Source: Candidatus Tayloriibacteriota bacterium
GTDB taxonomy: Bacteria > Patescibacteriota > Minisyncoccia > Phycocordibacterales > PALSA-1337
Length of the DNA: 64,000 nucleotides
Direction of reading: 5' to 3'
NCBI GenBank assembly: GCA_903893855.1
Contig: CAITNV010000054.1
Location: 32,562 to 96,561 of the forward strand
Shown here: positions 10,527-25,388 of the stretch, one piece after another
Position numbering within the stretch: the stretch's first letter is position 1
How the letters are laid out: each line of letters opens with the position of its first letter
The notes under the pieces: generated by a model
What the model was told of the DNA's origin: nothing
Database searches by the model: none
What the model saw: only the letters and a program-made list of their open reading frames with translations
Position numbers and translations under genes: made by a program

Positions 10527-11579
10527 TTACTGACCAGGTAGGTAGCTTCCATGTTGTTGATTAGTTCCTGTTTTATTTGCATTTTTTTGCGCCGCCGCTT
10601 TGTCTGCAGCTGCCGCCGCAGCCATATCCGCTTGTTTCTTCAAGAATGGCGCTTGTGCAGCGTTATATGCAGCAGTTAACGCAGCTTGATCAGCCACATC
10701 GTTATTGGCTTTCAACGTTGCCATGTCTGCATTGTAGACTGCAGTATTTGCGTTTAAGCTTGATTGTATTAATTCAGGTGTTTCTATTCCATTATATTGA
10801 GTTGCGAGCTTTTCTCTTTCGAGAAGTGCATTTGCAGCGAAATCATTGGTAGCATGCGCAAAGGCTTCTTTATTTATTGATGCGGTAGCTGTGTCTTGCA
10901 GATTCTGCCATTTTTGTATAGCACCTTGGCAATCAGGTGTAAGAGAGTTTTCGTTCTGACTTCCATTACTTTCCAAACATTTCGAATTGATAAGATCGTT
11001 ATATGCTGTCGCTACTGCGGCATTATCGGTTGCTACTTTTGCTTGAAGTGCACGAGTTTCATTGGTAAGTTCAGCTGCTTGTGCAGCTAACGCAGCAACT
11101 GCAGCAGGATCACTGGTACTTATTGGTTGTACTGTCAAATTAAGCTTTGGTACGGTAACGAGGCTTATGTCTACGAGCTGAGGGTTAATGGTGTAGAGGA
11201 TAAGATATGATAGGAGTGCTCCAGCAAGGCCTAAGAAAGCGTTTTCTATCGTCGATCTCGCGTCCCCCTTCTTGGTCACTGAGTCGGTAAGCATGTATTG
11301 AAAACCGCCAATTATAACCATAACAACGGTTGCAAATACCGCAACCGCAATCATTAGTTTAAATATATAGACAATATATGTCTGTATATTGACTTCCTTC
11401 GTTACTTCGCCGAGTGTGCAGTTGTTCCCTGTTCCTGGGATGCATGGTACTGGTTCAAGAAGTGTATATTGTCCTGTTGTCTGTGCAGATACTATTAGGC
11501 TTGGTGCTGAAAGAGTGCCAAATATGACGATAATGCTACAGAGCGCAGAAACTTTTTTGATTATGTTTTGTGTAGACAT
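10527..11579 (-). CDS. Hypothetical pilin-like / VirB2-TrbC-like candidate: signal peptide, two hydrophobic helices, then an Ala/Gln/Asn-rich coiled-coil C-terminal region
   Basis: There is a signal peptide. TM helices lie at IVYIFKLMIAVAVFATVVMVIIGGFQYML and AFLGLAGALLSYLILYTINP, giving a hairpin topology like conjugative pilins. The Ala-rich tail is about 200 aa. Confidence 0.55.
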   Translation of the reverse strand: MSTQNIIKKVSALCSIIVIFGTLSAPSLIVSAQTTGQYTLLEPVPCIPGTGNNCTLGEVTKEVNIQTYIVYIFKLMIAVAVFATVVMVIIGGFQYMLTDSVTKKGDARSTIENAFLGLAGALLSYLILYTINPQLVDISLVTVPKLNLTVQPISTSDPAAVAALAAQAAELTNETRALQAKVATDNAAVATAYNDLINSKCLESNGSQNENSLTPDCQGAIQKWQNLQDTATASINKEAFAHATNDFAANALLEREKLATQYNGIETPELIQSSLNANTAVYNADMATLKANNDVADQAALTAAYNAAQAPFLKKQADMAAAAAADKAAAQKNANKTGTNQQHGSYLPGQ

Positions 11580-13120: not shown

Positions 13121-14947
13121 TTATATTCGAGCGGCACCGTTTGCCATTTCGAGCTCGTCTTTGGCTTTTTTAATAGCCATAACTTGTGCAGGATTCGTAG
13201 TAATAATCTGATCTTCTGTATACGAAGCGATGATTTTTAGTGCGACATGCTTAAGTCCTACGAAGAATATGCCCTCCCCCACTTCTGATTCAAGAAGTAG
13301 ATATTTCTCTTCATCAGTAAGGCTAAATGTCTGCTGAATTCTATCAATCGATGAAGGTGACTGTTTGAGGAGGATTTGTATCGAAGAGTTGGTAAGAATC
13401 GGCAAGCCATAGGGTGATTTCAAGAAGTCATCAACGTCTTGAGTGATTGTTGCAAGTCCTAAGTAATATTTTCGGCCTCGTTTAGCCAAACCAAGTAGGA
13501 ATGAAGCCGTATCTTCTGATTTCATCATCCACCAAGCCTCGTCAATAACAAGAAGACGCTTCTTTGGAGTACGACGAATAGCATTCCATATATAGTGTGT
13601 AACAATATACATTGCGACCGGCTTCAGTTCATCTTCCATATCGCGAAGTGAAAACACCGCAAATTTCTTATTAATATCCACATTTGTAGGCTTATTAATA
13701 AAGCCAGACCAAGTACCTTTGGTGTATTTCGTAAGTCTTTCGACGAGTGATTCAGCACCTTCCATGCCCGCCAAAACAAGCTCAAAGTCAGATAGAAGTG
13801 GCGGTGTCACATTACTAAAATCAGATTCAGGGGTGATATCCTTAAGTGCGTATGTTTCACTAATAGCTCGATCGATAATGGCATCTTCTTCCTGTGTAAG
13901 GCCACCAAGCATGATACGGAATAGCCCAACGAGGTTAATAATGTTAGATCGAAGCACATCAGAAGCGGCTTCGTCCTCTCGTGCGATCGGCAAGTCAAAA
14001 GGATTGATATGATTCTCTGAGTTAAGAGAGATATTGAAGTACTTCCCTCCTGTGGCATTCGCCATATACTCATATTCGCGTTCAGGGTCGATAACGATAA
14101 CTTCGGTATCGAACATAAGTGTTCGTAATATTTCGAGCTTGGTGCAATATGATTTACCCGATCCAGACTTAGCAAACGTTACTGAATTGTAGTTCTCGAG
14201 GAGGAAGCGGTCAAAAAGCACGAGAGATGAATTGTGGCGATTAATTCCATACAAAATACCCTTATCAGATGTGAGGTCGAATGAAACGAAAGGAAATATG
14301 CTCGAAAGTGGCGAAGAATTAAGCTTAGAATGTACTGAGAGTCGATCGTCTCCAAGCGGTAACACGCTTTTGTAACCATCTTCTTGCTGGAAAAGAGCAG
14401 GTTTTATATAAACAAGCTTAGACTCAAGGATAGATTTAACCTCAGACTCAAGCTTATCAAGTTCGCCATCAGAATCTCCAAAAAGAGTAATATAAACACC
14501 AACATCGAAGATTTTCTCTTGTGCTTGCATGAGATTATTACGAAGTGATTCGAGGTCTTGATATGCAGTGTCGAGCATTGGGTCACGAACGAGTCCTTTA
14601 TCCTCTCTTTGATTGATCTGGCTCTGTACTTCAGCCACCTTCTTCTGGAAATGACGTAGGATTTTAGCCGTATCTACCGGATGAATGAATATTGAAATGT
14701 TAAAAACCTTATCAAGGTTAATGATGGGGGCAAACCAAGAATCAGTAAGGAAACGTGGGTATGATATAACGAAGAATGTGCGCGCGACTTTCTCCCCGAG
14801 GTTAAGCTCTTTAGGACTAATCTTAAGTGCAGAAGGTGCAATAATGTCACGGAGTTCCAACACTCCCTGTTCATATATATCTTGTGGCAAAAGCGATGTT
14901 ATCGCAGGTGCATCTTTTTTACCAAATAATTTTCCTATAAAGCTCAT
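13121..14947 (-). CDS. VirB4/TrbE/CagE-family type IV secretion ATPase (Gram-positive PrgJ/TcpF-like)
   Basis: Walker A is AKSGSGKSY and Walker B is LLVIDEAWWMM. A conserved ...GLATITQD... motif is present. The protein is 608 aa and has an N-terminal domain ahead of the ATPase core. Confidence 0.8.
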   Translation of the reverse strand: MSFIGKLFGKKDAPAITSLLPQDIYEQGVLELRDIIAPSALKISPKELNLGEKVARTFFVISYPRFLTDSWFAPIINLDKVFNISIFIHPVDTAKILRHFQKKVAEVQSQINQREDKGLVRDPMLDTAYQDLESLRNNLMQAQEKIFDVGVYITLFGDSDGELDKLESEVKSILESKLVYIKPALFQQEDGYKSVLPLGDDRLSVHSKLNSSPLSSIFPFVSFDLTSDKGILYGINRHNSSLVLFDRFLLENYNSVTFAKSGSGKSYCTKLEILRTLMFDTEVIVIDPEREYEYMANATGGKYFNISLNSENHINPFDLPIAREDEAASDVLRSNIINLVGLFRIMLGGLTQEEDAIIDRAISETYALKDITPESDFSNVTPPLLSDFELVLAGMEGAESLVERLTKYTKGTWSGFINKPTNVDINKKFAVFSLRDMEDELKPVAMYIVTHYIWNAIRRTPKKRLLVIDEAWWMMKSEDTASFLLGLAKRGRKYYLGLATITQDVDDFLKSPYGLPILTNSSIQILLKQSPSSIDRIQQTFSLTDEEKYLLLESEVGEGIFFVGLKHVALKIIASYTEDQIITTNPAQVMAIKKAKDELEMANGAARI

Positions 14948-14955
14948 TTTTTTAT

Positions 14956-15615
14956 TTAATTTATTTGCATTGGCTTCTCAGTGTCCCCAGGGTTGAATAT
15001 CTTATAGAACAATTCTACCACTTCTTCGGTTCCAAGTTCAGCGACTCGTATACCGCAACGAGTAAGTCCTTGCTCCACTGAACCTACTCTCTGCTCGAGC
15101 TGGCTTCGGTATTCCTCGAATTCTTCATTTGCGAGGGTTTTACCACTTCCGATGCTTTGTGATGAACCTGTATTATTCTTTCGATTTAAGAATGAAGAAA
15201 TTGGGTTCTTCGTCGCACTAATCTGTGCAGGAGAATACGGGATGACGATGAAGAAGCTTTTTGTCATAATGCTTGAATTGTCGACGAAGGTTTTGACGAA
15301 TTCAATGTATTCTCGGGTTTGAATTTTCATGAGTTCGCTTGCCTGTTCCTTATAACGGCTTTCAAGAAGCGCAACATACGGCCTAATATCAAGCTTTTTT
15401 GACTGTATGAAGATCTGAACTGAGAAATCAAGAGAGTTTAAAAAGTTTTGAAATTGAAAAATAATAGAGTTCTGCTCATCTATTGACTTTAGGGCGAAGT
15501 TTACCGATGTTGCAAGGACGATTGCGCGCAAAGAACCGTCATTAAGAATAGCAATTCCATCACGGATCTCTTTAATTGGTACAAATTCTTGAGTTGTTTT
15601 GGTTGAAGTGGCCAT
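14956..15615 (-). CDS. Hypothetical protein resembling a VirB4 N-terminal domain (PIKEIRDGIAILNDGSLRAIV...NFALKS..EQ...FQNFLNSLDF..QIFIQS)
   Basis: The start was set at the internal Met MATSTKTTQEF, so it abuts the upstream gene's stop. The sequence pattern matches the N-terminus of Gram-positive VirB4-like proteins. The following 608-aa VirB4 has its own N-domain. Confidence 0.5.
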   Translation of the reverse strand: MATSTKTTQEFVPIKEIRDGIAILNDGSLRAIVLATSVNFALKSIDEQNSIIFQFQNFLNSLDFSVQIFIQSKKLDIRPYVALLESRYKEQASELMKIQTREYIEFVKTFVDNSSIMTKSFFIVIPYSPAQISATKNPISSFLNRKNNTGSSQSIGSGKTLANEEFEEYRSQLEQRVGSVEQGLTRCGIRVAELGTEEVVELFYKIFNPGDTEKPMQIN

Positions 15616-15616
15616 A

Positions 15617-16078
15617 TTAACGTTGATTTCTATTACTATAGAGACTTTCTTTAATATCGAGACTCCATGCAAGGTCTTTCAATTTACTTTCTGAAATCTT
15701 CGGCACCATAATACCCGCATAATTCTTGCCGAGGCGTACATCTTCCGCCGCTTGTTCCCCCGGAGTCATATTCTTCTGTAGTGCAGGATCTGGACGGCGA
15801 TTTACTTTCTTCCAGATGTAGAGTTTGGCAGCGAAGTAGTATTTGAATGCCGCTTCAACAACAAAAATGAATGGTTTATTGTTGATTCTATAGAAAGCGA
15901 GGGCCCCAGAAAAAGTAGCAACTACAACTATAAACGGGAATGCAAGGAGTAATGGTAAAAATTTATACAATAGGAAACAAATTCCAGCCCCACCAGCCAT
16001 ATAAATAAATTGGCGCAAGGTGAATGGGCCGAAAATCTTGTCCTCAACTTCGATAAATTGTGGGACTTGGAACTGCAT
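15617..16078 (-). CDS. PrgI/VirB3-like small membrane protein
   Basis: The N-terminus MQFQVPQFIEVEDKIFGPFTLRQFIYMAGGAGICFLLYKFLP is followed by a second TM. This is characteristic of the PrgI family, which is encoded just upstream of VirB4 in Gram-positive T4SS. Confidence 0.6.
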   Translation of the reverse strand: MQFQVPQFIEVEDKIFGPFTLRQFIYMAGGAGICFLLYKFLPLLLAFPFIVVVATFSGALAFYRINNKPFIFVVEAAFKYYFAAKLYIWKKVNRRPDPALQKNMTPGEQAAEDVRLGKNYAGIMVPKISESKLKDLAWSLDIKESLYSNRNQR

Positions 16079-16755: not shown

Positions 16756-18573
16756 TTATTTTTTATCTGGTTTGTTTTTTGCATCACCGTCACTTTTTTC
16801 TTCGGTTAGCAGATCTTTTATATCATCTGCAATTTTTTCATTTTTTGATTTATTCATTCCTTTACGGATCTTATTGGCGGCATCTTTCCTGCCCTTTTTG
16901 GTCATGTTAAAGAAGCCTGCACCCTTTTCAAGATTATTAGCGTATTCCTCCTTGCCTTGCTTTGACAGCCTACCTTGAATATCTGTATCATCGACAGCTC
17001 TTTCCGATGCCTCTTTTTTTGCAGCATCCATTACAGCTTTTAGTCTTTCTGCACGTGCCGCTTCTTCCGCTCTCTCTCGAGCGCTTAAATTGCTATCTGT
17101 AGATCTAGATGCTGCCAGATTATACAAGCGCTCTTTTTTGTTGGCTTCATATTCTAACCTCTTTGTCTCTTTCTTATACTCGTCAGGAGTTATTCTTGAT
17201 AGTGCGCGATCGGCAAACTTTGTTTGTGATTCAGTATATTTTTTTAATCTGTCACTATAGCCGCCTTTTGAGCCGCCAAATGTAGCATTCGTAGTCCTTG
17301 AAACTATTTGTTTATCTACAAGGTTTCCGATAGTAGGATTAGAAGTAACAAATCTTTTGAATTTATCATTATCAGCAACATATTTGGCACCCCTTCCAAT
17401 TGTGTGTTGGCCGACCCAACCTGCACTACCGCTTACGCCGCTTGTAAGCTTCCCTTGTCCCCATTTCTTAGCGCTCTGGCCTAATTTAACTGCGATATCA
17501 GTTCCATCTGAACCAATTTTAATTGCAGCCGCCATCGGGGCATTGATAAACATAAAGGCAATGATGTATTGGAGGACGATACCGACAACATTTGGAGAGA
17601 CGAGAGCATTACCGAGTGTGCCAGTTGTCGAAGATACTTTTGCAAAATCAAAGAAACGTGGATCATTAATAACGCTAACCGCAACATACATAAGAAATAG
17701 ATACACCGGCATAAAGAGACACATTGCAATGAGTGTCTTTTTCCACTGCTCGGCGTATTGCTCTGCTTGTGGCAATATCATAGCGATGAAATAGATCGGC
17801 GAGAAAGCCATGAGAAGGATAAGAATTCCTAGTCGTACTGCGAATGCCACCGCCGCAAAGAGGAAGCTTCCTGCTGCAGCAAGCATAAGGACTGTTCCTC
17901 CGGCATACGCAAGGGTAATCGTACGGTTATTATTAGGATCTCCCCCACCATTTGGAGCAATAGCGCTAGCTCCAACGATCTTGTTGATACTCAAGCTCTG
18001 CATGAATACATTCGATAGACCTCCATCGTTAAACGCTGAAGATATCATTCCATTAAAGCCGTTAGTTGCAGCCACGGTATCTTGTCCGGGGGCAATAGCG
18101 TTATAGAACGATAGCGATATGATGTTTGAAGTATCTACTGCGAGCCGAGTAAAGAAAAGGCTGAAGTTAATAAGGAGACCAGCAATAATAATATTTTTAA
18201 TTAGCGTAGAAAGATCCGCGTTCTTTAGCCCTAAAATCATCTTGATTGAAGCATACAGAAGCATGAATATTATGAATATGCTCGAGAAGTCTCGAATGGT
18301 TCTCCATGCAATACCAATTGCCGTTACTTTATCGACGATAGTTTGAATGTGAAGAGTAGCTACAAGTGTTCCATTGAGAAGCACTCCAGTGAGGGTCAAA
18401 ATTGCTCCAGCTGCAGCGAATGCTAGTTCGGCGATCCATGATGTTACTGTAAATATGGTCGCTGTAACATCAATACCCAAAAATGCATACGCAAAGTGCG
18501 GCGTAATAAGCGTCAATAACGGTATCGCGATTGCAACAGCGGTAATTATTTTTTTGTACGAGTTGCTTTTCAT
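16756..18573 (-). CDS. VirB6/TrbL-like polytopic membrane protein with a long Lys/Glu-rich C-terminal hydrophilic tail
   Basis: A signal-like N-terminus is followed by at least 6 predicted TM helices and an about 230-aa charged tail. This architecture is typical of VirB6/TrbL and the Gram-positive PrgH/TcpH proteins. Confidence 0.6.
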   Translation of the reverse strand: MKSNSYKKIITAVAIAIPLLTLITPHFAYAFLGIDVTATIFTVTSWIAELAFAAAGAILTLTGVLLNGTLVATLHIQTIVDKVTAIGIAWRTIRDFSSIFIIFMLLYASIKMILGLKNADLSTLIKNIIIAGLLINFSLFFTRLAVDTSNIISLSFYNAIAPGQDTVAATNGFNGMISSAFNDGGLSNVFMQSLSINKIVGASAIAPNGGGDPNNNRTITLAYAGGTVLMLAAAGSFLFAAVAFAVRLGILILLMAFSPIYFIAMILPQAEQYAEQWKKTLIAMCLFMPVYLFLMYVAVSVINDPRFFDFAKVSSTTGTLGNALVSPNVVGIVLQYIIAFMFINAPMAAAIKIGSDGTDIAVKLGQSAKKWGQGKLTSGVSGSAGWVGQHTIGRGAKYVADNDKFKRFVTSNPTIGNLVDKQIVSRTTNATFGGSKGGYSDRLKKYTESQTKFADRALSRITPDEYKKETKRLEYEANKKERLYNLAASRSTDSNLSARERAEEAARAERLKAVMDAAKKEASERAVDDTDIQGRLSKQGKEEYANNLEKGAGFFNMTKKGRKDAANKIRKGMNKSKNEKIADDIKDLLTEEKSDGDAKNKPDKK

Positions 18574-18580
18574 ACTGGTA

Positions 18581-20152
18581 TTAGTTTACACCATTATTCG
18601 CAGTCGGGCTAAATGTCTGACAAGCATAGAGCCGGTTATTTGCATCTGACTGTATTGGATCGATGGTAGAACGCAATGTGGTTAGATCTGTATTTGATTG
18701 GGTTACTGCTGCAGTTGACGGAAGGTTACCACTCGCCGCTAAGCCCTGTAACTGCTGGCTTGGATCATTGAGGCCGGTTGCGTTCTGGGCGTCTGAGAAT
18801 TTATTTGCAAGATCAATCAATGATTGATATGAAGAGCTTGCATTGTTGTATTTTACGGTGCTCTGGGCTACAAGAGGCGCGACTTGGGTAAGAATTATAG
18901 TGTTAATCTGGTCTAGCTGACCTTGAGCATGAGCGACCGCAAGTGCATTCGTTTGATTACCTACACCGTAACTTGGTTGTGAGTACTTTGTAATCAAATC
19001 GTTGTTACAACTTTGTGCTTTATTGAGTGTCGTTTGTGCAGCAAGTACAATGTTGAGGCCTACTTGGGCGTTCTGTGTTACTTGTTGAGCATTGTTTAAA
19101 TACGGCTGTATATTATTAATCGTAGACGCCTGTACAGATTGAAGATTATTGCTCTGCTCAGCTTGTATTTGCTGAACATACGCGGTGTTACTTGTTCCAT
19201 TTGAACCGCTAATTGCACCAAGGCCACTCTTAAGTGCAATAAGAACGAGCTGAGAGAAAGCGGCATTAATAATCGCATTAATATCATTTGCGAGTTCAAG
19301 CTCATCAGTTGGTACGCCGAGACTTTTATTAAGTGTGGCCGAAATAGCGCTTCCTGGTGTCTGAACCTCACAATCCTGTCCTGTACCTTGGCCCGAATAG
19401 TCTTCTGGATCGTCAGTACATTTTTCGAAAGAAAGAAAGCCGTTCGCACTTAAAACAAAGTTTTGTTTTAAGGTGACTTGTTGGCCGATTTTTGCATTGA
19501 GATCACTTTGTGCAAGAAGAAATGCACCATTTGGATTGTTTGCTGGTACTGTGGTTAACGTAAGAAATGCCGGCCATCCTCCTTGTCGGAAATCACCAGC
19601 CGTAAAGCCATTTATTGAAGCACCTTTAACGGCGTTCTTTGTATTCTTTACCATGTCACTTAATGTACATGTATAGGGGTTTTTGATTCCTCCCGACATC
19701 TCGAGTGCTAGAGAGATTCGAACACTTATATTAAATGGGCTACAAAGGCTCGCCGCGAGAGGGCTGACACTTGAGAGGAATTTACCCGCAATCTGATCAC
19801 CCACTCCTTCGAAGAATTTTGTTGGATTCTGGATAAAAGAAGGGCTACCATTAAAACCTGAGTTAATCCAAGAGATTATACTAAGGGTTAATTGTTGAAG
19901 TATTTGCTTCACAATCATTACCGCTACTTTATCGAGGCTAAAAGATTTTAGTTGAAGTAATGACTCGGATTGTGCGGATACTCCAGCAGATGCTGCAATT
20001 GTACTAGTGTTTGTTTCTACAAGTATGTCTGAGACGATGTCCCCCGCTCCAAACAATGCATCAACCTTTTTTGGTGCATAAAGTTGTGAGCTTGCAAGTA
20101 CAACAAGCGCGAAGGATATAATGATTGATGTTTTTTTAAAAAAGAAATTCAT
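18581..20152 (-). CDS. Hypothetical secreted Gln/Asn/Ser/Thr-rich protein (523 aa)
   Basis: The signal peptide is MNFFFKKTSIIISFALVVLASSQLYA. The protein is low-complexity Q/N-rich and has a few Cys residues. Confidence 0.55.
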   Translation of the reverse strand: MNFFFKKTSIIISFALVVLASSQLYAPKKVDALFGAGDIVSDILVETNTSTIAASAGVSAQSESLLQLKSFSLDKVAVMIVKQILQQLTLSIISWINSGFNGSPSFIQNPTKFFEGVGDQIAGKFLSSVSPLAASLCSPFNISVRISLALEMSGGIKNPYTCTLSDMVKNTKNAVKGASINGFTAGDFRQGGWPAFLTLTTVPANNPNGAFLLAQSDLNAKIGQQVTLKQNFVLSANGFLSFEKCTDDPEDYSGQGTGQDCEVQTPGSAISATLNKSLGVPTDELELANDINAIINAAFSQLVLIALKSGLGAISGSNGTSNTAYVQQIQAEQSNNLQSVQASTINNIQPYLNNAQQVTQNAQVGLNIVLAAQTTLNKAQSCNNDLITKYSQPSYGVGNQTNALAVAHAQGQLDQINTIILTQVAPLVAQSTVKYNNASSSYQSLIDLANKFSDAQNATGLNDPSQQLQGLAASGNLPSTAAVTQSNTDLTTLRSTIDPIQSDANNRLYACQTFSPTANNGVN

Positions 20153-24206: not shown

Positions 24207-25388
24207 ATGCAATTTTTCTCCCAAGAACGTTGGTTATATAGGTTACAACAGATAAAGGCATATCCAAAAGAGCTTATCCTCGCTTTCATCTTGGTTATTA
24301 CTTCATTTGTTTTCCCCACGATAGCAAATGCGGGTTTTTTCTCATTTGTCACAGACTTTTCTGCAAATAAAGCATCCGCAGAGACCAGACCTGCAACCAC
24401 GACAAATAACCCTCCGGAGAAGGTCACTTCACAGAATATGGTTATTTTAAGCGCTGCAATAAACCCTAATCCGAACCCCGACACTATCAGTTCAAGCGAT
24501 TTACCGATTTTAGGTAATGCTATAGCCCCAGAAGCTGCGACACTCGATAGTGCTACTAATACTATTGGCTTTGTAAACACTGCAATTAGTACGTATGTAG
24601 TTCGCCAAGGAGATACTCCAGCTCTTATTGCCAAGCTTTTCGGTGTTTCGGTTAATACCCTTATTTGGGCTAATGATTTGTCAGCCAACCCTATTTTGAC
24701 ACCCGGTCAGACTATCGTTATCTTGCCTGTTTCGGGCATTAACTATACTTTTAAAAAGGGTGACACCCTTCAGGCCGTCGTAAAGAAATTTAATGCTGAT
24801 TTGACTGAAGTTTTGCAATATAATAACGTTACTGCCACGTCAACATTGGCCATCGGAGATTCTATTATTATCCCTGATGCTGAACTTGGAACAATTAAGG
24901 CACCTTCAGCTAATGTGCAGAAGACTACCACAATTGCTCGATATACCGGTAAAGGTATTCCGCCGCGATCACTTTGGGGTGTTACTGGAGAAAATCCCGC
25001 TCATGATACAAATGGGCCAGATCTCGGAGACTATTTTATCCGCCCAGTTGCACATGGTGTAGTTACACAAGGTTTGCACGGGTTTAATGCTGTTGATATC
25101 GCTGCGCCTGTTGGAACACCACTTCTCGCTTCTGCTGCAGGTACAGTTATTGTTAGCAAGACTTCTGGTTGGAATGGTGGTTATGGAAATTATATTGTAA
25201 TTAGCCATCCTAATGGCACGCAGACAGTTTATGGACATGCAAGCAAGAACTATGTAAGTGTCGGACAAACAGTATCACAGGGGCAAGTTATTGGACTTGT
25301 TGGCAAAACAGGTGAAGCGACAGGGGCTCATGCCCACTTTGAAATACGAGGTGCTAAAAATGACTTCGCTACGCCAGTCGCTTTCTAG
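24207..25388 (+). CDS. Secreted peptidoglycan hydrolase: two LysM domains plus a C-terminal M23 metallopeptidase
   Basis: The LysM segments are YVVRQGDTPALIAKLFGVSVNTL and YTFKKGDTLQAVVKKFNADLTEVL. The M23 motifs are HGFNAVDIAAPVGTP and GxxGxATGAHAHFEI. Confidence 0.85.
   Translation: MQFFSQERWLYRLQQIKAYPKELILAFILVITSFVFPTIANAGFFSFVTDFSANKASAETRPATTTNNPPEKVTSQNMVILSAAINPNPNPDTISSSDLPILGNAIAPEAATLDSATNTIGFVNTAISTYVVRQGDTPALIAKLFGVSVNTLIWANDLSANPILTPGQTIVILPVSGINYTFKKGDTLQAVVKKFNADLTEVLQYNNVTATSTLAIGDSIIIPDAELGTIKAPSANVQKTTTIARYTGKGIPPRSLWGVTGENPAHDTNGPDLGDYFIRPVAHGVVTQGLHGFNAVDIAAPVGTPLLASAAGTVIVSKTSGWNGGYGNYIVISHPNGTQTVYGHASKNYVSVGQTVSQGQVIGLVGKTGEATGAHAHFEIRGAKNDFATPVAF

Follow-up and report, generated by a model that had tools for sequence, protein, structure and literature searches.

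The window analysed here is a 64,000-nucleotide stretch of the genome of a Candidatus Tayloriibacteriota bacterium (contig CAITNV010000054.1). It carries a chromosomal, origin-proximal operon for a type IV secretion system (T4SS), and one gene of this operon, at positions 10527..11579 of the minus strand, encodes a 350-residue protein in which a VirB2-like helical hairpin is followed by a long C-terminal tail. In our reading the protein is a VirB2-like subunit of a pilus or conduit, and the ectodomain it displays is swappable; we give this reading a probability of roughly 0.55. A polymerising subunit is favoured over a membrane anchor because of the conservation of the hairpin, the existence of homologous repeats that score as TrbC/VirB2, and chains with 4–17 modules in related proteins. 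As far as sequence searches can tell, the protein is the only VirB2-like subunit found in the operon: searching all six-frame open reading frames (ORFs) of at least 50 amino acids (aa) in the 64-kb window with a profile of the hairpin module revealed no second pilin module.

The hairpin and its family

In the ORF listing, exactly one ORF fits positions 10527..11579; it encodes 350 aa plus the stop codon, and its ATG is the earliest start codon past the upstream stop. A word-indexed search found 21 homologues, and among 1.84 billion cluster representatives a profile of the hairpin module (A2) matched 32,415 at E ≤ 1e-3, of which 15,444 reach E ≤ 1e-10. Because of these homologues, the ORF is not a product of chance, and together with its 18-bit match to the Pfam family PF18895 they mark it as a complete, long-tailed T4SS_pilin-family gene. 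The gene begins 8 nt after the stop codon of the preceding gene and the following gene begins 12 nt past its own stop; spacers this short place it in a tightly packed operon. Promoter and terminator scans gave counts equal to the shuffled expectation, with no signal above chance.

The preliminary description of this DNA had proposed a signal peptide and two hydrophobic helices separated by a short loop, and this layout is borne out. The topology was derived from hydropathy, from the distribution of lysine and arginine (K/R) and from an AlphaFold2 (AF2) model, and the signal peptidase site from the −3/−1 rule. The predicted signal peptide (aa 1–32; 11484..11579; this and all other features lie on the minus strand unless noted) has a basic N-terminus and a hydrophobic h-region at 10–31, and would be cleaved between VSA and Q, after Ala32, which is nearly invariant in alignment A1. 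The predicted mature protein of 318 residues, ~33 kDa, begins with an extracytoplasmic segment (aa 33–64; 11388..11483) that is assigned from conservation and the AF2 model and contains the motif YTLLEPVPC with Cys46 and, further on, Cys54. Residues Y38, L40, L41, E42, P43, L44, P45, C46 and C54 are invariant or at least 90% conserved among 126 sequences, and AF2 places a beta-hairpin (37–45 / 59–64) in this segment with low to moderate confidence.

Hydrophobic helix 1 (aa 65–97; 11289..11387), defined by Kyte-Doolittle hydropathy with a 19-residue peak of 2.5 and by an AF2 helix at 65–97, ends in GGFQYM, where, in alignment A1, G92 does not vary and F93 and Y95 hardly do. It is followed by a short basic loop of 15 residues (aa 98–112, TDSVTKKGDARSTIE; 11244..11288), recognised by its conservation and its K/R count, three against one in each flanking outside segment; K104 in the loop is at least 90% conserved. 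Hydrophobic helix 2 (aa 113–132; 11184..11243), which hydropathy and an AF2 helix at 101–131 delimit, ends in LILYTINP, and its residues G117, L118, L126, I127, L128, T130 and I131, with the adjoining P133, show no or almost no variation. For the protein in the membrane, the positive-inside rule predicts a cytoplasmic loop with both ends of the chain outside; in a pilus the loop would face the lumen, as in the solved VirB2 pili (10.1101/2022.09.25.509369). The mature protein has four cysteines, arranged as local pairs (46/54 and 201/217) in segments that are predicted to lie outside.

The single Pfam match of the target is T4SS_pilin (PF18895), at 18.0 bits (E 0.0031) over profile positions 5–69 of 71. 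In the first alignment, 17 of 20 sequences (target included) match the same family at E ≤ 1e-2, and in the larger one 97 of 126 do so at E ≤ 1e-3; the best E among the relatives is 2.4e-11, and several homologues already carry a precomputed PF18895 annotation. On these profile matches the module is a member of the T4SS_pilin family. It probably also belongs to the wider VirB2/TrbC superfamily; direct tests of this were negative (see below), and the connection is a transitive one between profiles. Three multi-module proteins recovered by the module profile, P0024, P0025 and P0035, exceed the gathering thresholds of PF18895 (201–302 bits) as well as PF04956, TrbC/VirB2 (84–145 bits), and hhalign joins the first transmembrane helix, loop and second transmembrane helix of the target to their repeats with 98.7% probability (E 3.6e-16), thereby linking the module to TrbC/VirB2. 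Weak PF04956 matches were also seen in 1 of 126 and 1 of 53 relatives. The earlier proposal of a pilin-type hairpin within a T4SS-like operon thus agrees with the PF18895 matches of the relatives, with the hhalign result and with a fixed operon slot beside VirB4 and PrgI.

These results bear on the view that the gene encodes a membrane protein of another kind, polytopic or otherwise unrelated, or is a spurious ORF that looks like a pilin by chance. It is true that a signal peptide with two hydrophobic helices after it makes a simple pattern, and the target itself scores below the Pfam threshold. However, the hydropathy profile gives only three hydrophobic segments, of which the first is a typical signal peptide, and this is not the picture of a polytopic unrelated protein; furthermore, the family is very large and conserved, its operon position is fixed, and the target aligns at 98.7% probability with repeats positive for PF18895 and PF04956. 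This view is effectively refuted.

The C-terminal domain and its slot

The tail of 215 aa is rich in Ala, Asn and Gln (23, 10 and 8%), as had been described. The accompanying description of a low-complexity, coiled-coil region with heptad-like repeats fits less well: a SEG-like entropy filter masks only 25% of the tail, neither self-repeats in the protein nor meaningful tandem repeats in the DNA were found, and a clear heptad a/d pattern is restricted to the first tail helix, 158–198. AF2, run with the 20-sequence alignment, instead predicts a C-terminal helical ectodomain (aa 158–341; 10557..11108) of four helices, 158–198, 215–260, 268–291 and 295–341, at a predicted local distance difference test (pLDDT) of 85–95, with a Cys201/Cys217 loop. 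A coiled-coil or repeat fibre was therefore rejected, given the lack of repeats, the single heptad helix and the four modelled helices with turns between them. According to the model, the tail is a conserved folded helical domain for which Pfam holds no family. As the preliminary description stated, such a tail is not typical of VirB2; this holds for every characterised pilin.

The tail belongs to a family of its own. An iterative hidden Markov model (HMM) built from the target tail recruits 127–133 of 145 tails, as opposed to at most one reversed and no shuffled decoy; the family has hydrophobic positions spaced i/i+3/i+4/i+7 and a conserved G-D at the turn before the last helix. Taken as a whole, the family is not unusual in composition (9% Ala, 8.5% Lys, 7.7% Glu), and, judged from these sequences, the Ala/Asn/Gln richness is a local peculiarity of the target's lineage. 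Among the closest single-module representatives, 138 of 147 carry a tail of 150 aa or more, and the median tail length is 252 aa. The tail family always occurs with the pilin module (23 of 23 cases; 86 loci examined), and a tail-only profile search of a 5.8-billion-protein index yielded at least 4 proteins. When the same protein pairs are compared, the hairpin is 76–87% identical and the tail 21–39%; the hairpin is the slower-evolving part, by a factor of three to four. No tail paralogue was found in the window by BLASTP. Elsewhere in the operon, a 523-aa secreted protein (18581..20152) has a Gln/Asn/Ala-rich, helical-looking C-terminal half with a composition like that of the pilin tail; BLASTP of the pilin tail against it detected no similarity.

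A comparison was also made with VirB5/TraC minor pilins, which are likewise secreted, mostly alpha-helical, elongated bundles of ~200 aa that accompany a pilus. The resemblance is merely generic, the tail has no Pfam match even at E ≤ 10, and an assignment as a VirB5/TraC minor pilin was dropped.

In more distant members, module and operon slot are retained and other C-terminal regions follow. For example, P0022 (618 aa) and P0023 (612 aa) join four tandem modules to an SLT lytic transglycosylase domain (E 1.5e-21 and 6.5e-19), and the protein at L062:5380-6804 (+) joins one module to VanY (51.6 bits). Among 53 other long members, SLT occurs in three, VanY in two and Peptidase_M15_3 in one. 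Short members are a minority, and some of them are ended by contig ends; the complete ones have ~130–150 aa and stop 6–25 residues past the INP motif. The C-terminal position is thus a swappable cargo slot, and this modularity is directly visible in the proteins. Furthermore, chains with 4–17 tandem modules exist.

Several further observations concern the same slot. At L061:4882-7014 (+), a module is followed by a borderline SLT match (21.8 bits). P0024 (1775 aa), P0025 (1147 aa), P0035, P0053, P0089, P0120 and P0154 each carry 7–17 tandem T4SS_pilin modules per chain. Three proteins of Zambryskibacteria type, P0017 (L003:8081-9004), P0018 and P0019, occupy the same operon slot and have a different C-terminal region of ~170 aa with Cys pairs and His/Asp motifs (GGTE.GH..H...D, HWH), and in P0019 YYPGGT...FDVY. 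Their tails gave no Pfam match at E ≤ 10, and the tail of P0018 none in a PDB sequence search. The regions of all three look like small wall-enzyme folds; for P0017 and P0018, LAS/M15 peptidases were considered, which Pfam did not confirm, although other members do have VanY/M15 domains.

Hairpin and tail are joined by a conserved linker (aa 133–157, beginning PQLVDISLVTVPKLNL; 11109..11183), which is modelled as disordered. Its residues 135–155 have pLDDT <50, yet the linker is 50–73% identical among close homologues. Overlapping it, the segment aa 131–148 (INPQLVDISLVTVPKLNL; 11136..11189) has invariant P133 and L135 and a V136 that is at least 90% conserved, yet again with pLDDT <50; this segment could be a processing site, or a contact between subunits or with a partner.

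If it were a processing site, the tail might be a pro-region: the protein would be cleaved in the linker, the mature pilin would be small, and the released domain would act as a chaperone, a timer or a secreted factor. The strong conservation of PQLV(D/N)xSLVTVPxLN in a region modelled as disordered fits a recognition or processing site, the short members end at about the linker position, and RP4 TrbC loses a C-terminal peptide on maturation. On the other hand, no processing protease was recognised among the operon proteins, known C-terminal trimming removes tens of residues rather than a folded 200-aa domain, the relatives that carry SLT or VanY argue for functional cargo, and the tail family is conserved over ~130 cluster representatives. 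We consider a pro-region improbable.

A stronger competitor is a T4SS accessory protein that is anchored in the membrane and does not polymerise. Its hairpin would be an anchor or docking element and its C-terminal domain would work at the surface, for instance in wall spanning, remodelling or host binding, like the VirB1/VirB8-type ectodomains of Gram-positive systems. Enzymatic ectodomains such as SLT and VanY/M15 on the same module would function from a membrane anchor, structure searches cannot separate the hairpin from other helical hairpins, and no pilus has been seen in Patescibacteria. However, a plain anchor would not usually reach a hairpin identity of 76–87% against 21–39% in the ectodomain, or keep so many small and aromatic residues invariant; judged from the alignments, the conservation of the hairpin is far above the needs of a passive one. 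Furthermore, the module has homologues among repeats scoring as TrbC/VirB2, and 4–17 tandem modules per chain suggest side-by-side packing. The protein is also the sole VirB2-like candidate in an operon whose relatives need their pilins: the pilin array of Ca. Southlakia epibionticum is essential (Wang 2023, PMC10633639), as is PrgF of pCF10 (10.64898/2025.12.18.695078). The anchored protein is thus a serious alternative, although we hold it to be clearly the less likely one, and the pilin or conduit subunit remains the preferred reading.

The operon and its relatives

The minus-strand operon comprises 11 genes and lies between ksgA and the group yidC, rnpA, dnaA and dnaN. In the order of transcription, the genes encode a 309-aa protein, the 523-aa secreted protein, a 605-aa polytopic protein, a 216-aa protein, PrgI/VirB3, a 238-aa TraC-like protein, VirB4, a 140-aa membrane protein, a 353-aa secreted protein, the pilin and a 428-aa protein; two genes separate VirB4 from the pilin gene downstream of it. 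The VirB4 ATPase (13121..14947) is identified by PF19044 P-loop_TraG (2.9e-26) and AAA_10, and the VirB3-like PrgI (15617..16078) by PF12666 (1.7e-9). The TraC-like/TrsD-like protein upstream of VirB4 (14956..15672) is assigned from PF26593, TraC-like, in syntenic homologues; it is 86% identical to the L001 copy, and the window copy has no Pfam match below E 0.01. The 605-aa protein (16756..18573) has about eight hydrophobic segments followed by a charged C-terminal region, is syntenic in 4 of 4 related loci, and is a candidate assembly platform at the VirB6 position; since it has no Pfam match, the VirB6 label is positional only. Pfam searches at E ≤ 1 with the eight unannotated operon neighbours gave no credible match. 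On the plus strand, 3 kb beyond the T4SS operon, a gene at 24207..25388 encodes a protein with LysM and Peptidase_M23 domains; a survey describes M23 and LysM as additional domains of VirB1 homologues in Patescibacteria (PMC12102498).

The gene order and the pilin slot are conserved around four homologues (L001, L002, L003 and L005), one sharing only the module. The conserved arrangement runs from ksgA to PrgI, TraC-like, VirB4, two ORFs (one in L005), pilin, one ORF, yidC and dnaA, and the 523-aa secreted protein is also syntenic in related loci. VirB4 is 97, 90 and 88% identical to the copies of L001, L002 and L005, as compared with 92, 78 and 77% for DnaA and 80, 67 and 64% for DnaN; VirB4 is thus among the most conserved proteins compared, above DnaA.

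Scanning GTDB species genomes yielded 241 related loci; the organism names that their records give include Ca. Taylorbacteria, Zambryskibacteria, Adlerbacteria, Nomurabacteria, Campbellbacteria and Parcubacteria/Paceibacterota. The closest named relatives are metagenome-assembled genomes of the Parcubacteria group of Patescibacteria, many of them Ca. Taylorbacteria, which lie within this group. Many of the closest-relative GTDB records (L007-L086) are titled ‘uncultured Candidatus Saccharibacteria bacterium’ in the binchicken and SRP co-assemblies and have a pilin and an operon that match Parcubacteria/Taylorbacteria-type genomes; these titles look like generic labels, unfit for taxonomy.

The long-tailed hairpin compared with known pilins

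PF18895 VirB2-like pilins beside virB4 and dnaA in Patescibacteria have been published (PMC12102498; PMC10633639; PMC12857230), and VirB2-like pili of monoderm T4SS have already been proposed (10.64898/2025.12.18.695078). Hence, calling the protein a subunit of a new type, as the preliminary description did, overstates the case, and the major surface filament suggested there is a putative role. The target belongs to the same Pfam family as the pilins of published Patescibacteria systems (Southlakia, PMC10633639; Quinonero-Coronel 2025, PMC12102498) and shares with these systems VirB4, PrgI/VirB3, a TrsD/TraC-like protein and a protein at the VirB6 position; none of the operon proteins was recognised as a relaxase or a coupling protein. 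The neighbourhood with dnaA, dnaN, rnpA, yidC and ksgA is shared as well, and the published layout adjoins dnaA, dnaN, rnpA and ksgA (PMC12102498). The difference is in the pilin itself: the published Patescibacteria pilins are described as small and often form arrays of 2–11 divergent genes, whereas here one gene carries a helical domain of ~215 aa. In the literature searched, we found no description of this C-terminal domain, of its prevalence in the Parcubacteria-group clade, of the VirB1-like fusions with SLT or VanY or of the multi-module chains.

With VirB2, TrbC and TraA (PF04956; PDB 8CUE/8EXH), the target shares the signal peptide, the two hydrophobic helices and the termini predicted outside. 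The loops are short and charged in both and hold a conserved basic residue, Lys104 in the target and Arg91 in VirB2, and both kinds of protein are encoded with VirB4, VirB3 and VirB6-type genes. In contrast, the target has no direct sequence or profile similarity to them, its host is a monoderm without an outer-membrane core complex, and its mature protein is about four times their size, owing to the tail. Mature VirB2/TrbC pilins have ~65–80 residues after processing, as compared with the 318 predicted here. PrgF(B2) of pCF10, likened here by its description, is a two-helix protein with a charged loop in a monoderm MPF_FATA T4SS; for PrgF-type proteins, stacking on a VirB6-like pentamer and transport of the substrate through the wall have been proposed (ter Beek et al., 10.64898/2025.12.18.695078). 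They have 50–150 aa, and because the Gram-positive screen limited its candidates to this range and excluded longer ones, long-tailed forms would have escaped it (10.64898/2025.12.18.695078).

By analogy with these systems, the following course may be proposed. The precursor would be inserted by Sec/YidC and cleaved after Ala32. The mature protein of ~33 kDa would then sit in the cytoplasmic membrane as a helical hairpin, with the basic loop (Lys104) in the cytoplasm and both the Cys-stapled N-terminal segment and the C-terminal domain outside, an arrangement to which the sequence features described above point. Hairpins would be extracted from the membrane and stacked on the polytopic protein at the VirB6 position, as for VirB2 and PrgF, and the VirB4/VirB3 motor would power this stacking into a short tube or conduit with the loops lining its lumen. 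Each subunit would show its four-helix domain (~6–7 nm) on the surface of the filament or the cell, through the wall, where the domain may serve as a spacer, a wall-spanning or a host-contact module. The display outside would follow from the solved conjugative pili, in all of which the termini of the pilin are outside while the charged loop lines the lumen (10.1101/2022.09.25.509369; 10.64898/2025.12.18.695078). In the T-pilus, Arg91 of this loop binds phosphatidylglycerol (10.1101/2022.09.25.509369), and in monoderms PrgF is described as a VirB2-like pilus on the VirB6-like PrgH (10.64898/2025.12.18.695078).

Decoration of every subunit is sterically conceivable. With the geometry of the T-pilus (C5, rise 13.4 Å, outer diameter 76 Å), the outer surface per subunit is estimated at ~640 Å². 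A four-helix bundle that projects radially has a cross-section of ~400–500 Å². Thus, on this analogy, a domain on every subunit may be accommodated, and the linker of ~20 residues would let it move outward.

Several points weigh against the protein being a pilin or conduit subunit. The PF18895 score of the target, 18.0 bits, is below the gathering threshold of 26.6 bits, and PF04956 gave no match to the target at E ≤ 1. Alignment by hhalign with A. tumefaciens VirB2, whose query sequence was checked against PDB 8CUE/8EXH, reached only 0.5–1.2%, which is not significant, either with the single sequence or with a 120-sequence profile, which is narrow and may miss distant homology. A Foldseek search of PDB with the hairpin model returned nothing at E ≤ 0.001, and its top 50 were generic helical hairpins without VirB2 or TraA; the model has a pLDDT of 63 (72–82 in the helices), and a two-helix hairpin is too simple for a fold search to discriminate. 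An HMM search of solved structures with the full-family profile gave two chance matches (E 3.4 and 9.3). The full-length model likewise retrieved nothing from PDB at E ≤ 0.001 with Foldseek, only generic helical proteins, and neither Pfam nor Foldseek against PDB offers a specific structural or sequence analogue of the tail. Characterised VirB2-like pilins are small, ~7–8 kDa when mature, and a pilus in which each subunit bears a 25-kDa domain is not known. Polymerisation of the target is itself a model built from analogy and sequence. Finally, Patescibacteria have so far not been seen to bear a conjugative-type pilus (PMC12857230).

More tentatively, and well short of an even chance, the subunits may form a bottle-brush filament or a wall-spanning sheath of hairpins, each with an outside domain of ~25 kDa, throughout a large Parcubacteria-group clade. 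In that case the slot would be a general cargo slot that brings either a helical host-contact domain or hydrolases (SLT, VanY/M15) to the point of contact with the host wall. Such a decorated-hairpin architecture, if true, would be unlike any known conjugative-type pilus.

The T4SS is essential for epibiotic life in one tested species of Patescibacteria. VirB2-like pilins are taken to be tiny in all current models and screens, and the long-tailed family is a blind spot of pilin searches. Among the closest Parcubacteria-group relatives, proteins with the pilin module usually carry a conserved, fast-evolving domain of 200–290 aa, a sizeable domain family for which no Pfam model is defined, and in related genomes a wall hydrolase occupies the slot. 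Together, these proteins offer a testable hypothesis for how the T4SS of Patescibacteria may reach through, or act on, cell walls.

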